Of a DNA stretch of 64,000 nt, positions 24,960 through 61,513 are shown piece by piece. Numbering within the stretch: position 1 is the stretch's first letter; each line of letters begins with the position of its first letter. Location of the stretch: assembly GCA_012727535.1 (NCBI GenBank), contig JAAYGU010000104.1, positions 5,269-69,268 on the forward strand, written 5' to 3'. The notes under the pieces are model-generated. The model did no database searches and was not told where the DNA came from. It was given only the letters and a program-made list of their open reading frames with translations. The position numbers were made by a program, and so were the translations under genes. The stretch comes from Bacillota bacterium. GTDB taxonomy: Bacteria > Bacillota > UBA4882 > UBA10575.

Positions 24960-25018
24960 GTGACCAGCGACGAACTGCGAGAAAAAGTCCAGTCATTTAG
25001 CGAGCGACGAGCAACGAG
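24960..25018 (+). promoter_or_regulatory. GAR-heptad leader module upstream of the comB-like gene
   Basis: GTGACCAGCGACGAACTGCGAG, then CGAGCGACGAGCAACGAG. GAG triplets at 25002, 25009 and 25016 are spaced at 7 nt. Confidence 0.45.
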
Positions 25019-25075
25019 TACTTAGTCATATTTTCTAAGCAGCAAGCAACATAGATAGGGAGAGGTAAGGACAGC

Positions 25076-25810
25076 ATGAGAGTTGATCTAGTATTTACAT
25101 CAGGAATGAAAACAGTCAGAGATTATCATCGAAAAACTGTGGTGGTAATAGATGTTTTGCGGGCTAGCAGTACAATCATTACTGCCTTGGCTAATGGTTG
25201 CTTGGATCTATTGGCGGTGGCCGAGCCTGGTGACGCTGCAGTCATTAGGAGGCAGATCGGTGAAGGGTGTCTAACCGGCGGTGAGCGGAACGGGTTGAAG
25301 ATACCAGGCTTTGATCTAGGAAATTCTCCACTGGAATATACGGCGGAGAGGGTGGCCGGGAAGAGAATCATCATCTGTACCTCAAACGGAACAAAGGCGT
25401 TAGGGGAAGCAAGAAACGCGGACGAGCTCTTAATTGCGGCTTTTCTCAATGCTGAAAAAACAAGCCAGTATTTGCGGGAGAAGGAGGATGTAGTGCTTTT
25501 TTGTGCTGGTAGTGATGGAGAACCGGGGTTGGAGGATTTGCTCTGCGCCGGTATGCTCATTGAGCACCTGGTGACGGAAGGGGAAGGGCAATTGACCGAT
25601 GCCGCCCGGATTGGGTTGCTGACCTACCGTCAGTTGCTGGCTGGGAGAAGTAGTGAGTTGGCGAAGGTTCTATATGAGTCGGATCATACTAGGTATCTGG
25701 CCTCGATAGGTTTTGCGGAAGATATAGATTATTGTGCCCAGGTTGATCTGCTCCCATATTTAGTGCGGGTCAAAGACGGTCGGATCATTAAGGAGCAGGA
25801 ATGGGCCTAG
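25076..25810 (+). CDS. comB: 2-phosphosulfolactate phosphatase family protein
   Basis: ComB-family N-terminus VVVIDVLRASSTIITALANG, at the length typical for the family. Confidence 0.8.
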   Translation: MRVDLVFTSGMKTVRDYHRKTVVVIDVLRASSTIITALANGCLDLLAVAEPGDAAVIRRQIGEGCLTGGERNGLKIPGFDLGNSPLEYTAERVAGKRIIICTSNGTKALGEARNADELLIAAFLNAEKTSQYLREKEDVVLFCAGSDGEPGLEDLLCAGMLIEHLVTEGEGQLTDAARIGLLTYRQLLAGRSSELAKVLYESDHTRYLASIGFAEDIDYCAQVDLLPYLVRVKDGRIIKEQEWA

Positions 25811-36644: not shown

Positions 36645-36755
36645 ACGGGAGTGACGAAGGATGAGACGGGTAGGCCTGCTTGCAGCACGAGTGAGAGTGA
36701 AGGTGGCGATCAAAGGTTTGCTGGAGTGTGAATGACCAGCGACGAGAAAGGAGAG
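36645..36755 (+). promoter_or_regulatory. Purine-rich GAR leader module upstream of murB
   Basis: GAGTGACGAAGGATGAGACGG, CACGAGTGAGAGTGAAGG and GTGTGAATGACCAGCGACGAGAAAGGAGAG. The last contains the murB SD. Confidence 0.4.
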
Positions 36756-36761
36756 CTTTGG

Positions 36762-37676
36762 ATGCCGGGTAAAGACTGGCGGGCGGAGTTGATTGCGGCT
36801 GTTCAGCCGGAAAACTATCGGTATGATGAACCAATGTCTCGTCATACTTCCTTTCGCATTGGGGGACCGGCGGATTTAATGATTGAAGTGGAAACCCCCG
36901 ACGAACTGGCGCGGACAGTGGAGTATTGTCGGAAATCCGGAATTTTCTGGTTTTTACTAGGTCGCGGAACCAATCTCCTGGTGAAAGATGAAGGAATCCG
37001 GGGGGTTGTGCTGAAATTGGGGAGAGAATTTTCCCGGATTTCAGTGGAAGGGAAGAAGATTAGAGTGGGAGCAGCTGTTTCTCTAGCGAAGGTAGCCGAA
37101 CAGGCCGCTCGTAACGGGTTGGCTGGTTTAGAATTTGCTTCAGGGATTCCCGGGAGTGTTGGCGGGGCAGTCTTTATGAATGCCGGGGCCTACGGGCGGG
37201 AGATGCAGGATGTAGTGAGCGCCGTCCATCTTTACCGACCGGGTAAAGGTTTTAGTATATACCGCCGGGAGAAACTGGGGTTTTCTTATCGCTCCAGTCG
37301 CTTGCAGACAGAAGAGGCCATCTGTTTGGAGGTGGTTCTGGAGTTGGCCGCCGGCGAGGAAGCCCAGATTCGGCAAGAGATGGGAGAGCTGAACAGCCGA
37401 CGCCGGGAGAAACAACCTATGGAGTATCCGAGTGCAGGTAGTGTCTTTAAACGACCGCCAGGCGATTTTGCCGGTCGGTTGATCGAGGAAGCCGGGCTTA
37501 AAGGGAAGCAAGTCGGCCAAGCTCAAGTGGCTCCGAAACACGCCGGGTTCATTATCAACCTGGGCGGGGCGGCTGCACAGGATGTTTTGGATTTGATGGC
37601 TTTGGTGCGGGAGGAAGTTCACCGTAAAAGCGGTGTCTGGCTAGAACCGGAGATCCGGGTTTTGGGAGATGACTGA
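36762..37676 (+). CDS. murB: UDP-N-acetylenolpyruvoylglucosamine reductase
   Basis: MurB FAD-binding and C-terminal motifs (TSFRIGGPADL, LGRGTNLL, GSVFKRP). ATG 36762 follows AAAGGAGAG. Confidence 0.92.
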   Translation: MPGKDWRAELIAAVQPENYRYDEPMSRHTSFRIGGPADLMIEVETPDELARTVEYCRKSGIFWFLLGRGTNLLVKDEGIRGVVLKLGREFSRISVEGKKIRVGAAVSLAKVAEQAARNGLAGLEFASGIPGSVGGAVFMNAGAYGREMQDVVSAVHLYRPGKGFSIYRREKLGFSYRSSRLQTEEAICLEVVLELAAGEEAQIRQEMGELNSRRREKQPMEYPSAGSVFKRPPGDFAGRLIEEAGLKGKQVGQAQVAPKHAGFIINLGGAAAQDVLDLMALVREEVHRKSGVWLEPEIRVLGDD

Positions 37677-37744
37677 CGTGTGATGAATAGTATTCGCCAA
37701 GAATACTCTACCAAGAAATTCAAGTCAGCGGAGAATACCATTCA

Positions 37745-37812
37745 GTCCGGCCAAGTAAAGGCTTGCGTAGGCTGTCTGTTATTACGAGCGACGAGTGACG
37801 AGCGACGAGGCG
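37745..37812 (+). promoter_or_regulatory. Element tail plus tandem heptad GAG module
   Basis: CCGGCCAAGTAAAGGCTTGCGTAGG aligns with the tail of copy C (CCGGCTAGGTAAATGCTTGCCAAAGAGG). It is followed by ACGAGCGACGAGTGACGAGCGACGAGG, with GAG at 37786, 37793, 37800 and 37807. Confidence 0.5.
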
Positions 37813-37875
37813 GGGAATAAATTCCAGGAGGAGCCTCTGGAAAAAAGGAGAAAGAACTCTCCGGGAGGCGATGAC

Positions 37876-38928
37876 GTGAAAAATCATGGCTTGAAAATAC
37901 TGCAACGAACTAGATTTCCTTTATACTTATGTTTTTTAATGCTAATTACATTATTGGTCGGTCGTCCCCTGTTGAGTAGTGCGCAAAATGAAGTGAAGCT
38001 CGAACGGTTGATTTCAGGAGAATATGATGTCTGGGGTATAGATTGGCGGTCGGATGGGAGAATCGTTTTTTCCGGAAAAAAAGAAGGAGAAATCGGTGGG
38101 CAGATGCGGATTTGGTTGTACCGTCCGGGTCCGGATAACTCACCGGTCTTGTGGACCGGAACCGGTAGTCTGGTAGACTCCTCACCGAAATGGGCACCAG
38201 ACGAAAGCGGAGTGGTGATGGTGAGAAAGATTGTTCCGAGTTCATCCGCGCGTCAGATGCAGACTGCGATTTGGTGGAAGGCTTTTCCTTCGGGCGAAGG
38301 ATTACGGTTGACGACCGGTCCGGAAGACCGGGACCCGGCTTGGTCGCCTGATGGGGAGAGGATTGTCTTTGTGCGGGGAGATGGCCTCTATACTTCTTCC
38401 TTACTGACGATAAACAGAAATGGTACTGGGCTTACTACCCTCATCCATAACTGTCAGGGGTTTATTACTACACCGGATTGGGGGAAAAACAATAAGCTTT
38501 ACTACACAATGTTGCAACCGCGGAAGACGGCAGTACAAACGGATAGTTTAACCGCGGAATGTTGGGGTTTGGATCAGGGACGGATCTGGGTCTATGATCC
38601 CGATACTGGTGAGAATCGGCCTCTCCTTGAGGAAGAAAAGGGGAATGATCACCGGCATCCGGCGGTCTCACCCAGCGGGCGATACCTGGCTTATATTGCG
38701 ACTCGCGGCGGTGACGGACCAGAAAAGAGGGTCATCCGCGATCGGGGAAGCCTGATTGTTTTGGATCTGGAGACGGGAGAGCGGTTTCATGTCACTGACG
38801 GAGTGAGCCTCAACGGCGGTTCTCCCTGTTGGAGTCCTGATGAGAAACAGATTGCCTTTCTCAGTTTCCGGGATAATCGGCCGGCTGCCTGGAAGATTGA
38901 ATGGGAGAAATATGCAGTTCAGGAATGA
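37876..38928 (+). CDS. TolB-like PD40/WD40 beta-propeller protein with signal anchor
   Basis: Repeated PD40 motifs (SPKWAPDESG, DPAWSPDGERIVF, HPAVSPSGRYLAY, SPCWSPDEKQIAF). GTG 37876 lies 7 nt after GGGAGG. The ORF-track extension covers the GAG module. Confidence 0.7.
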   Translation: MKNHGLKILQRTRFPLYLCFLMLITLLVGRPLLSSAQNEVKLERLISGEYDVWGIDWRSDGRIVFSGKKEGEIGGQMRIWLYRPGPDNSPVLWTGTGSLVDSSPKWAPDESGVVMVRKIVPSSSARQMQTAIWWKAFPSGEGLRLTTGPEDRDPAWSPDGERIVFVRGDGLYTSSLLTINRNGTGLTTLIHNCQGFITTPDWGKNNKLYYTMLQPRKTAVQTDSLTAECWGLDQGRIWVYDPDTGENRPLLEEEKGNDHRHPAVSPSGRYLAYIATRGGDGPEKRVIRDRGSLIVLDLETGERFHVTDGVSLNGGSPCWSPDEKQIAFLSFRDNRPAAWKIEWEKYAVQE

Positions 38929-50795: not shown

Positions 50796-50901
50796 GGTTT
50801 ATTTAATAAATGTTCGGTGGGATTTTGTTCGTAAGTTCAAGATGGCGTATTGTACATAAAAGGACGTAATAATCGACGGGTGATAAAACAAGCAAGGTTT
50901 T

Positions 50902-50943
50902 GTGAAATCCATCGACGAGCTGCGAACTGCGAGTACGAGGAGG
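50902..50943 (+). promoter_or_regulatory. GAR-heptad leader module abutting the pepF SD
   Basis: GTGAAATCCATCGACGAGCTGCGAACTGCGAGTACGAGGAGG. GAG/GAA triplets at 50917, 50924, 50931, 50937 and 50940. Confidence 0.5.
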
Positions 50944-50951
50944 TTTTAAAG

Positions 50952-52751
50952 ATGGAGAAGAGGGAGAAAGTACTCCCCGGGAGGGAGGAGATCCCGGTTG
51001 CCTATCGCTGGCGGTTGGAGGATATTTATGCTTCCCTTGATGAGTGGGAAGCAGATCGGCAACGAGTGGAAGAACTAATCCGGGATTTTGAGTCCTACCA
51101 AAACAAGGTAGGTGAGTCGGCCCAAACTCTTCTGACGGCGTTGCAAATTAGAGACCAGTTAGGCCGGCTATTGGATAAAATGATCGTTTATGCCCGGATG
51201 AAAAGGGATGAAGATAACACCAACTCCCAGAGTCAAGCCTTAGCAGACCGGGCGCAGGCGATTGCTGTGCAGGTTCAGACTAAGGCCTCCTACTTTCTCC
51301 CCGAAGTGATGGCGATCCCCCAAGCCAGAATGGAGGCATATTTCCAGGAGGCACCAGGGCTCGAAACTTACCGCCACTTTTTTGCCGATCTGTTCCGGCG
51401 GAAAGAACATATTCTTTCCCCCGCAGAGGAACGGATCTTGGCTTTGAGCGGGGAAATCGGAGATAGTGGACAGAACATCTTTACCATGTTGAACAATGCA
51501 GATTTACGTTTCCCAGTCATCCATGATGAAGAGGGGAATGAAGTTGAGCTCACGCACGGGCGGTATTTACGTTTCCTGGAAAGCAAAAAACAAGCGGTGA
51601 GAAAGGAAGCTTTTTTCGGAATACACCGCACCTATCACCGGTACCGGAATACCCTAGCTGCTGCTTTAAATGCCGGAGTGAAGAGTAATGTCTTTTATGC
51701 GCGGGTGCGCCGGTACCCTTCGGCCTTAGAAGCGTCTTTGGATGATGATCATATTCAGGTCAAGGTTTACGAAAACCTGATTGCCGTTGTCCGGGAGCAC
51801 CTTCCGCTTTTACATGAATATTTGAAGGCCAAACAAAAGCTACTAGATCTGCCGGAGCTTCATCTCTATGATCTCTATGTTTCACCGGTGACCGGCTTTG
51901 AACTAAAGATCTCCTATGAAGAAGCTAAAAAGGGTGTGAAGGAAGGCTTACAACTGCTGGGGGAGGATTATGGTCGGCTGCTTGACCGGGCTTTCACTGA
52001 TGGATGGGTGGATGTTTATGAAAATAGAGGGAAAACCAGCGGTGCATACGCCTGGGGGTGTTATGATAGTCATCCTTACATCTTGCTTAACTTCCAAGGT
52101 GGGGCTAATGATCTCTTTACCCTCGCGCACGAATTAGGGCACGCCCTGCACAGCTACCTGTCCAACCAAGCCCAGGCCTACGTGAATGCGCATTACCCGA
52201 TCTTTCTTGCCGAGATTGCTTCGACTGTCAATGAGGTCCTACTAGTTTTACACCTGATTGAACGGGCGCAGTCCCGCGAAGAGAAGTTGTATTATCTCCA
52301 TCATTTTTTGGAACATTTCCGAGCGACGGTTTACCGGCAGACGATGTTTGCCGAGTATGAAAAAACCCTGCACGAACAGGTAGAAAAAGGGGAAGCCTTA
52401 ACCCCGGAGTGGTTGGAGGAAGAGTATTTTACTCTGGTGAAAACCTATCATGGCCCAGGAGTGACCTTGGACCAGGAAATTAAAGCGGAGTGGTCCAGAA
52501 TCCCGCATTTCTTTTACAATTTCTATGTGTATAAGTATGCGACCGGTTTCTGTTCGGCAGTAGCTTTGGTGCAAAAGTTTCGAGCAGAAGGGGCGTCAGC
52601 AGTCCAAAATTATCTGCAGCTACTGGCCGCGGGCGGTTCAGATTACCCCTTAGAGTTATTAAAGCGGGCCGGGGTGGATTTGTCCATTCCCGAGCCGCTG
52701 GTGGCGGCGATGACCTTGTTTAAGCAATTGGTTAGCGAGTTTACCGGGTGA
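50952..52751 (+). CDS. pepF: Oligoendopeptidase F (M3B)
   Basis: Zinc motif HELGHALH and the expected M3B length. ATG 50952 lies 8 nt after GAGGAGG. Confidence 0.9.
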   Translation: MEKREKVLPGREEIPVAYRWRLEDIYASLDEWEADRQRVEELIRDFESYQNKVGESAQTLLTALQIRDQLGRLLDKMIVYARMKRDEDNTNSQSQALADRAQAIAVQVQTKASYFLPEVMAIPQARMEAYFQEAPGLETYRHFFADLFRRKEHILSPAEERILALSGEIGDSGQNIFTMLNNADLRFPVIHDEEGNEVELTHGRYLRFLESKKQAVRKEAFFGIHRTYHRYRNTLAAALNAGVKSNVFYARVRRYPSALEASLDDDHIQVKVYENLIAVVREHLPLLHEYLKAKQKLLDLPELHLYDLYVSPVTGFELKISYEEAKKGVKEGLQLLGEDYGRLLDRAFTDGWVDVYENRGKTSGAYAWGCYDSHPYILLNFQGGANDLFTLAHELGHALHSYLSNQAQAYVNAHYPIFLAEIASTVNEVLLVLHLIERAQSREEKLYYLHHFLEHFRATVYRQTMFAEYEKTLHEQVEKGEALTPEWLEEEYFTLVKTYHGPGVTLDQEIKAEWSRIPHFFYNFYVYKYATGFCSAVALVQKFRAEGASAVQNYLQLLAAGGSDYPLELLKRAGVDLSIPEPLVAAMTLFKQLVSEFTG

Positions 52752-60042: not shown

Positions 60043-60283
60043 GATGAAGCGATGAGTGATGAGGATCGAGATTATTTGCCGGATGATCGGCAGGCGGCGT
60101 GGAAAACTTCGTAGAGCTGCGTTCTAGGTGCGAGCGGTGCTCGATATACGCGAGTATTATCTGCGCTCCGTCCTCCCTTGCACCTTGCTCTACTTGCTTC
60201 TCCCGCCGCGAGTCGAATCTGGGAGAAATCTGCCGACCCTCCGGCAAGGTGCTGCCCGGCTAGGTAAATGCTTGCCAAAGAGG
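60043..60283 (+). repeat. Copy C of the recurrent structured intergenic element, inside the aro operon
   Basis: The 5' arm 60076-60093 pairs with the 3' arm 60230-60247 at 16/18 positions. By hand count, about 76 of 88 core positions are identical to copy B. It lacks the tail hairpin. Confidence 0.8.
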
Positions 60284-60290
60284 TCGTTCA

Positions 60291-60400
60291 CTACGAGTAA
60301 TGAACGACGAGGGGTAGTTGAACACGAGCGTGCACAACGAGCGGAGAACTGTTAATAGCGTGTGTGAAACCGAACGACGAGCTGCGAGTGCGAGGAGGGA
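60291..60400 (+). promoter_or_regulatory. ACGAG-rich / GAR-heptad leader module abutting the aroB SD
   Basis: Six ACGAG motifs, ending in CGAACGACGAGCTGCGAGTGCGAGGAGGGA. GAA/GAG triplets at 60372, 60379, 60386, 60392 and 60395. Confidence 0.5.
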
Positions 60401-60406
60401 CAACAG

Positions 60407-61513
60407 ATGGGGGTTGAACGGGAGCTCCGGGTGAAGGCTGGGACTCAGGAGTATCCAATATTTTTAGGGACTGATCTCTTGGTCAAGAGTGGTAAGCTTC
60501 TACAAGCGGAAGGTTTAAAGGAAAAGGTGCTGGTGGTAACCAACCCAACAGTGGCCGGGTTGTACCTTGACTTATTGCTGCAGGGACTTCAGCGGGAAGG
60601 CTTTAAGCCGCAGGTGGTAATGATTCCCGATGGGGAGGAGTATAAGCAGCTTGCTCAGTTGGAACAGGTATATGATGCGGCGGTGGCGGCCCGTTTAGAA
60701 CGTGATTCGACCATCATGGCGCTTGGGGGCGGCGTGATCGGAGATTTAGCCGGTTTAGCGGCGGCTACTTATTTGCGAGGGGTACAGTTCGTGCAGGTTC
60801 CTACGACGCTGCTGTCGCAGGTAGATAGTTCAATCGGGGGGAAAGTAGCAGTTAATCACCGGGAAGGAAAGAATCTGATCGGCGCTTTTTATCAACCAAG
60901 AGTGGTGATCAGCGATCTGAATGTTATTTCTACCCTGGACGAGCGGGAGTTTAAATCAGGCCTAGCCGAGATAATTAAAGCCGGGTTGATCGGAGATCCG
61001 GTTCTTTACGATCTACTATTAACAGAAAAAGCTGCGATAAAAGCCCGGGCGGCTGATGCTTTATTAAGCGTTATTGAACTTGCTTGCCGGTTTAAAGCGC
61101 GGGTGGTCGAGGCGGATCTTTTTGAACACGGGGGACGGGCGGTGTTAAACTACGGACATACGATTGGCCATGCCTTGGAAGCGGAGACTGTTTACAGTGA
61201 TTATCGTCATGGTGAGGCGGTTGCCATCGGGATGAGGGGAGCTGCCTTTCTCAGTGAGGAGCTAGGTCTTTGCCCACCGGAGATAAGCCGGAAAACCACA
61301 GAACTTTTGCAGATCTATAATCTACCGCAAAACTTGCCGGAGATTCCGGCTGCGCGTCTACTGGCGCGTATGGAAATGGATAAGAAAATCAAGGAAGGGA
61401 AGCTCCGTTTCGTCCTGACCAAAGGGATCGGCGAGGCAGTGCTGAAAGACGATCTCCAGCCGGAGTTGCTCACTAAGGTGTTATGGCGGCTGGGAGCGGG
61501 GAGGGGAGAATAA
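60407..61513 (+). CDS. aroB: 3-dehydroquinate synthase
   Basis: [44 protein letters not shown], plus metal ligands in NYGHTIGHA. Confidence 0.95.

Follow-up and report, generated by a model that had tools for sequence, protein, structure and literature searches.

Tandem heptanucleotide arrays in gene leaders of an uncultured Bacillota bacterium as a probable module of mosaic intergenic repeats

Our data show that the phased GAG triplets found ahead of several genes in a member of an uncultured Bacillota class belong to short heptad arrays, and that these heptads, variable in number, make up a module (in most cases the 3' tail) of two families of dispersed repeats (A and B) located in spacers between housekeeping genes. 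It is probable that we are dealing with repeat DNA, in the form of tandem heptanucleotides of the unit CGAG-YRR (in another phase, YRACGAG) that are carried as a module of mosaic intergenic repeats and belong to the bacterial class of heptamer repeats, with which they share a tandem 7-nt unit, period-specific recurrence in intergenic DNA and a patchy, variable copy number. A first-pass annotation of the 64,000-nucleotide stretch of DNA analysed here (the window) had instead proposed that GAG/GAA triplets next to the Shine–Dalgarno sequence (SD) form a binding platform on which an oligomeric RNA-binding protein controls translation. Neither enrichment nor conservation, architecture or phyletic pattern supports such a regulatory platform: the loose GAR pattern is not enriched, what is conserved is repeat DNA, namely the entire heptad with its YRR-C ‘spacer’, start codons lie anywhere from 1 to 519 nt away, orthologous arrays are missing or decayed, and the candidate protein HutP occurs in 52 of 58 genomes of the class, as against 17 of 58 for the arrays.

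The focal array (37784-37810, plus strand) lies upstream of a TolB-like gene and reads ACGAGCGACGAGTGACGAGCGACGAGG, i.e. ACGAG-CG-ACGAG-TG-ACGAG-CG-ACGAG-G, four YRACGAG units at the 3' terminus of an inserted repeat. TRF applied to 37784-37809 returned a period of 7 with 3.7 copies and the consensus ACGAGCG, which confirms 7-nt units arranged head to tail. The GAG triplets stand at 37786, 37793, 37800 and 37807, and when re-read from the window these positions, like those recorded earlier for the comB-like, pepF, aroB and murB leaders, all proved exact. According to blastn, the sequence that bears this heptad tail is a copy of the family B core (37693-37783, plus strand; TTCGCCAAGAATACT..CCAAGAAATTCAAGTCAGCGGAGAA.ACCATTC..GGCCAAGTAAAGGCTTGC.., followed by a small hairpin), and the focal array is the 3' end of this family B copy. 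A search of Rfam gave no match, either at the gathering threshold over the whole window or at E<=1 over 37600-37900; look-ups of the exact protein sequences of the TolB-like gene product (two starts tried) and of murB found nothing on record.

What this locus looked like before the insertion can be seen in other genera of the same family: in the 13 genomes concerned, murB ends in ...GG(N)GGGGAATAAATTCC.. and is followed directly by the leader and SD of the TolB-like gene, in a repeat-free spacer of about 60 nt. In the window, the letters GGC GGG GAA TAA ATT CC persist from 37810, directly 3' of the array, with GGC GGG GAA TAA (37810-37821) as the remnant of the codons, including the stop, with which murB once ended, whereas the murB reading frame itself now ends ..VLGDD* at 37676, as compared with ..ILGGE* in the relatives (window 37660-37821). 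Since the ancestral murB end is kept 3' of the array while the actual murB end has changed, the repeat inserted within the last codons of murB, with the array as its terminal part. No clear target-site duplication was found at the murB junction, and no mechanism of mobility was identified. The ancestral sequence displaced by the insertion (37810-37875, plus strand) thus comprises the remnant of the murB stop, the conserved TolB-like leader AATTCCAGGAGGAG... and the SD GGGAGG (37863-37868), with the GTG start codon at 37876. This ancestral leader also contains a small, conserved hairpin, TTCCAG-GAGGAGC-CTCTGGAA (window 37820-37845), and the motif AATTCC(A/T)G(C/G)AGGAG is present in most orthologous TolB-like leaders of the family.

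The arrays themselves evolve faster than their flanks, as is apparent from orthologous leaders. In the congener G001, the insertion upstream of the TolB-like gene has the same junctions, but its units read CCAG-CGA, TGCG-GGA, CGGG-CAG and CGAG, i.e. the register is kept and the flanks are conserved while three of the four GAG triplets are lost. Similarly, the comB leader of G001 retains the flanks (CCAGTC.TTTA .. TAAGCAGCAAG..ACATAG) around CGGTGCACGGCGGGTGGCGAAC, with units CGGT/CGGC/TGGC, where the window has CGAGCGACGAGCAACGAG. The comB element is absent in other genera, and the pepF leaders of other genera are short and without the repeat. A conserved triplet phase, which the platform had predicted for orthologous leaders, was thus not seen: arrays are absent outside the genus, and in the congener GAG is lost from between flanks that are kept. 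Judging from the sequences of these orthologous sites, the arrays in the murB to TolB-like spacer and upstream of pepF, comB and hutP are lineage-specific insertions. At the pepF leader of G006, which belongs to another genus (G006:C1:103380-103900), there is a separate set of heptads, CGAGCAA CGAACGA CGAGCGA CGAGTAT CGAG, together with a ATCTATTTTCTAGGTAG box, which points either to repeated insertion into one spacer or to differential loss.

The remaining modules of the window, all on the plus strand, fit into the same picture. The comB leader (24960-25042) consists of GTGACCAGCGACGAACTGCGAG (24960-24981), the heptad array CGAGCGACGAGCAACGAG (25001-25018) and a 3' box TACTTAGTCATATTTTCTAAGCAG (25019-25042), with GAG at 25002, 25009, 25016 and 24979 and GAA at 24972, ahead of a start codon at 25076. 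The pepF module TGTGAAATCCATCGACGAGCTGCGAACTGCGAGTACGAGGAGG (50901-50943; triplets at 50917, 50924, 50931, 50937 and 50940) adjoins the ancestral SD, with the start codon at 50952, and its part from 50901 to 50925 forms a pair of direct repeats (D14), 88% identical, with 60363-60387 in the aroB leader. This leader (60290-60399), which stands 3' of a copy of the family A element, is composed of an irregularly spaced ACGAG-rich stretch (60290-60345) and the module TGTGAAACCGAACGACGAGCTGCGAGTGCGAGGAGG (60363-60399; triplets at 60372, 60379, 60386, 60392 and 60395), followed by the start codon at 60407; the element segment at 60114-60134, to which the module sequence had been likened, reads GAGCTGCGTTCTAGGTGCGAG. 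The murB leader module GTGTGAATGACCAGCGACGAGAAAGGAGAG (36726-36755) has only two phased GAG (36744 and 36751), the second of which is the SD of a likely start at 36762, and shares (A/G)TGACCAGCGACGAR with the comB leader. Direct repeats and blastn within the genome bear out the earlier view that the five modules are related, showing them to be copies within a single repeat family, and mapping of the repeat cores confirms that modules are placed after copies or tails of the structured element. Also correct was the suspicion that two modules had been turned into false N-termini, VTSDE in the open reading frame at 37795 and MTSDE in that at 36732. The modules had further been placed immediately 5' of the SD, which holds for pepF, aroB and murB but not for the other two genes: the focal array ends at 37810, leaving about 53 nt to the SD and 66 nt to the GTG, and the comB array likewise stands off (57 nt).

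An important question is whether it is the triplets or the heptad as a whole that recurs. The genome from which the window was taken (2.23 Mb in 150 contigs, 49% G+C) was searched with a set of 2037 genes from a simple caller combining a Markov model with ribosome-binding sites. The pattern (GAR-N4)x3 is present in 27 of the 60-nt leaders at period 7, as compared with 23, 26 and 23 leaders at periods 5, 6 and 9; the enrichment of phased GAR triplets expected for a platform is therefore not found, and the pattern turns up at any period because SD regions are purine-rich. Since it is not period-specific, this loose motif was dropped in favour of the CGAG heptad. In intergenic DNA, CGAG-N3-CGAG was found 45 times at period 7 versus 3-6 times at the other periods between 5 and 12, and arrays of at least three units nine times at period 7 versus 0-1 times at any other period. 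The period-7 intergenic CGAG pairs correspond to 42 loci in 34 regions. Arrays in this genome are short, with at most five units, and runs of at least four phased GAG exist in only four arrays genome-wide, all of them NNN-CGAG heptads and one of them the focal array. When intergenic GAG x3 arrays were gathered without bias, the information at the ‘spacer’ positions amounted to 0.17-0.71 bits, with the pattern Y-R-R-C, i.e. purines at positions 2 and 3 and C at position 4. As all four spacer positions are informative, the repeating unit is the whole heptad, and there is enrichment beyond chance, but for the specific heptad YRR-CGAG only.

The larger context of the heptads emerged with the leaders as blastn queries, which revealed the two dispersed mosaic repeat families. 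Family A, with at least 22 core copies in the genome, is the structured element mentioned in the first-pass annotation. Family B, with at least 26 core copies, is about 130 nt long and consists of the core TTCGCTAAGAATACT..CCAAGAAATTCAAGTCAGCGGAGAACACCATTC..GGCTGGGTAAAGGCTTGC, a small hairpin and a variable number of heptads, after which many copies end in a AGTATTTTCTAAGTAG box; family B core copies are present also in other genomes of the same taxonomic family. An A or B core lies within 300 nt of 22 of the 42 intergenic heptad loci and is co-oriented with the heptads at 21 of these 22, and another eight loci have the GGTAAAGGCTTGC junction motif or the 3' box, so that 30 of 42 are found inside or beside the two families. 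Some repeat copies contain an imperfect inverted repeat, CTAAGAATACT ... AGTATTTTCTAAG; the focal copy is without the 3' box. Like other mosaic repeats, these elements exist in many copies, are built from modules and are present at some orthologous sites but absent from others. With respect to genes, the arrays run in the same direction as the downstream gene in 26 of the 34 regions (p = 0.003), and in co-directional spacers they tend to lie nearer the start codon, with a median relative position of 0.32 (KS p = 0.004) and no fixed register.

Beyond this genome, matches to the heptads of the query, without its B core, are found in many genomes of the family and in other families of the class. 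The four-unit pattern found in 17 of the 58 class genomes ranges from 0 to 61 matches per genome, with none in G001 and most of genus g2, many in G009, G007, G006, G013 and G022 (61 in the last), and occurrence in only one of the 31 genomes of family f5. Arrays can be far longer than in the window: one in G002, located between carB and a pyrK-like gene, has about 17 units and another in G022, ahead of an XPB-like helicase gene, has 16, the last unit merging into the SD in both cases; in G003 an array lies between convergent genes. A scan of 185,579 species genomes, in which about one chance match would be expected, showed CGAG-containing heptamer arrays with many different units in numerous phyla among the matches listed, where TGACGAG arrays appear in Alcanivorax, Saprospiraceae, Caldilineaceae and other groups. 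A metagenome scan for copy-number variants of the focal array, using both flanks and a variable gap, gave 0 matches in a set that near-identical records may lie outside of.

How could such arrays arise and come to stand in front of genes? Copy number would change by replication slippage, and units would then decay by point mutation. Ancestral spacers were probably short, containing little more than stop codon, SD and start codon, such that an insertion would be tolerated only upstream of the SD; the arrays may look SD-proximal because these short spacers leave the heptad end of the element against the SD. Their bias towards the sense strand most likely reflects the orientation that is tolerated in a transcript. 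We infer no dedicated regulator, and effects on expression would probably be incidental, for instance those of a passive unstructured spacer. Several points count against this explanation. The skew in orientation and towards the start codon would also be expected of a functional leader element; several arrays, in this genome as well as in relatives, run directly into the SD; and the persistence of the unit across families of the class is not obviously explained by pure neutral slippage.

The most plausible functional alternative, which we nevertheless regard as unlikely, is a passive unstructured spacer between a folded core and the SD, i.e. a generic and protein-free effect in cis, selected because the purine-only, unstructured array serves as a ribosome standby site or insulator and keeps the SD accessible 3' of the folded core. 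An array RNA that is purine-only and unstructured would be unable to sequester the SD, and the predicted centroid structure of the focal leader leaves the array unpaired; as a whole, this leader is no more structured than usual (z = -0.67). In most composite copies the array is indeed located between the structured A or B core and the SD, its orientation and start-proximal bias are as such a spacer would have them, and the last unit often merges into GAGG or GGAGG. A similar idea has been proposed for the TAACTGA repeats (PMC4679880). Against a selected spacer stands the fact that array-free orthologous leaders work in all other genera, that 53 nt of ancestral leader separate the focal array from the SD, and that the units decay in the congener G001.

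Heptad arrays can also take part in double-stranded structures, and this leads to a second, distinctly less probable alternative, in which the arrays are remnants or satellites of intervening-sequence cassettes, i.e. single arms left behind by, or mobilized together with, heptamer-armed cassettes carrying the gene for the four-helix-bundle protein of 23S rRNA intervening sequences (IVP, PF05635). Solo arrays might then still be recognized by IVP, or pair in trans as substrates of RNase III. The evidence comes from G005, a genome of the same family, where the rRNA operon (G005:C34:8300-12500, minus strand; delimited with the Rfam LSU and SSU models) has an insert of about 400 nt at about 1.2 kb into the 23S gene, in the helix-45 region, in two of the three 23S copies. 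This insert contains a PF05635 open reading frame, and its arms CTCGTAGCTTGTCGCTGGTCGCTCGTCCCTCG and CGAGTGACGAGCGACGAGCGACGAGCTACGAG are inverted CGAGYRR heptads predicted to pair over about 30 bp (-70 kcal/mol); the 16S-23S spacer of the same operon starts with CTCGTCG heptads. As an inverted pair, the YRACGAG heptad can thus act as a duplex-forming arm, and in our interpretation the restriction of unit variation to Y and R matches the changes that a stem of this kind could absorb through G-U wobble. Moreover, inverted period-7 arrays lie on both sides of the IVP gene, within about 120 nt, in 7 of 10 loci sampled from the class, with units that differ by genome (AGGGAAA, AGGCAAT, AGAAGTC, GAGGCGT and others). 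The window arrays, on the other hand, are solo and located in mRNA leaders, unlike the inverted pair around a PF05635 open reading frame in G005. PF05635 was not found in the window genome, an absence that is uninformative, as its 23S gene is unassembled and 23S is assembled in only 2 of 20 genomes of the family. The sole inverted pair of heptad arrays in the window genome, CTCGCCACTCGCCGCTGGTCGCTCGTCACTCG ... CGAGCGACGAG on contig C80 (2900-3000), has its arms about 50 nt apart and adjoins a reverse-oriented copy of family A. Two other candidates did not hold up: an inverted pair on contig C109 is a coincidence, with arms 2.6 kb apart and one of them within a pyruvate phosphate dikinase gene, and a match to ‘GGATCACCTCCTT’ on contig C6 is not a 16S rRNA end.

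The least probable of these alternatives is the specific form of the protein platform in which an orphan HutP-family hexamer, present throughout the class, binds XAG at 7-nt spacing and controls translation or termination of dispersed genes including its own. The comparison with HutP made in the first-pass annotation is accurate, since HutP reads three XAG per face separated by 4-nt spacers, with only A and G recognized specifically (PMC2425495), and this rule formally fits the (C)GAG heptad: the four focal GAG with their 4-nt gaps exceed the three XAG that such a site comprises, and the exact 7-nt period is that of the hut terminator RNA of Bacillus subtilis. The suggestion that the genome might encode ring-forming RNA-binding proteins was also borne out by profile matches, which revealed homologues of both HutP and TRAP. 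The HutP-family gene (PF09021; contig C36:4869-5279, minus strand, outside the window; 145 bits) is followed by genes for an AroH-type chorismate mutase and a histidine phosphatase and by hisC, with no hut genes adjacent. Its own leader has four phased units, ACGAG-TG-ACGAG-GA-ACGAA-TG-ACGAG, which end 24 nt before the start codon. The chance that one of two candidate genes has a leader array amounts to only a few per cent, a coincidence that is suggestive though noted post hoc, and for which the same insertion process accounts. The sense orientation of the arrays and their bias towards start codons would likewise be in line with an RNA-level function. If true, repeat-borne arrays spread through leaders would constitute a young, lineage-specific post-transcriptional regulon, with a regulator captured by a selfish heptamer repeat.

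Most observations, however, speak against a role of HutP. In the hutP leaders of other genera, a conserved terminator is followed directly by the SD with no array in between, and in the congener G001 the units are degenerate. HutP is found in its 52 class genomes regardless of arrays. Spacers in HutP sites are sequence-independent (PMC2425495), whereas the heptad spacers are constrained. In the hut terminator, a G-C-rich stem has an XAG-rich site on either side, the two sites being 12-17 nt apart; the focal locus lacks this layout, having a single array of four units, and no plus-strand terminator was found in 37500-38000. The array sites are not conserved in orthologues, and TGACGAG arrays exist also in Alcanivorax and the other groups among the matches listed above. 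The protein itself is remote from known HutP, as phmmer matched it to no solved HutP in the PDB. The hutP-aroH spacer, inspected for a native XAG site, contains another repeat copy and only one weak phased NAG run. A conserved hairpin resembling a terminator (GGCACTCCG..GGGTGCTTTTTT) stands ahead of the orphan HutP-family gene in every case. TRAP binds 9-11 (G/U)AG repeats with 2-3 nt spacers, and its homologue here (MtrB, PF02081; contig C24:6492-6734, outside the window) lies directly upstream of trpE-trpD-trpC-trpF; the 4-nt spacers, the number of units (at most five) and this position beside the trp genes rule it out as a reader of the arrays. The spacer between the TRAP homologue and trpE is 275 nt long.

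Repeat DNA built from heptamers has precedents. Cyanobacteria possess short tandemly repeated heptanucleotides (STRR) in intergenic DNA, described in the literature of 1990, whose function is unexplained. The closest parallel are the TAACTGA repeats of marine Beggiatoaceae, Cyanobacteria and Bacteroidetes (PMC4679880), which are tandem 7-nt direct repeats in sets of 2-6 copies, much longer in some relatives. They are scattered through the spacers between genes, mainly in forward orientation and a short way ahead of the start codons of functionally unrelated genes, and their phylogenetic distribution is patchy. For the Beggiatoaceae copies in front of start codons, a post-transcriptional regulator was put forward but has never been demonstrated (MacGregor 2015, PMC4679880). 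In contrast to TAACTGA, the unit here is YRACGAG and the host an uncultured Bacillota class, the arrays are parts of larger mosaic repeats with normal SDs downstream, and insertion and decay can be seen in orthologues. Heptameric repeats are in excess in bacteria (PMC4692102); as with STRR and with the G-rich heptamers of Xanthomonas and Nostoc treated in that paper, heptamers are over-represented here relative to other unit lengths and are intergenic, while differing from these precedents in the YRACGAG unit, which is purine-rich but not G4-forming, and in the short arrays. In being multi-copy mosaic elements that are intergenic, co-transcribed and variable in the number of an internal subunit, families A and B also resemble the pneumococcal BOX and Bacillus cereus bcr1 elements, with which they share no sequence similarity and whose variable subunit has about 45 nt instead of 7. 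The ORF-bearing 23S intervening sequences (IVP/S23p), finally, share the identical heptad in the G005 stem.

Heptanucleotide repeats are frequent in bacteria and unexplained, and the arrays described here provide a new example from the Bacillota with a defined unit, YRACGAG. For genome annotation, they matter as a source of spurious N-terminal extensions (VTSDE/MTSDE). Larger intergenic repeats carry the arrays along as modules, and the insertion sites are visible in the states before and after insertion, including one insertion that rewrote the end of murB. Furthermore, a close relative uses the very same unit as the stem of an IVP-bearing intervening sequence in its 23S rRNA.
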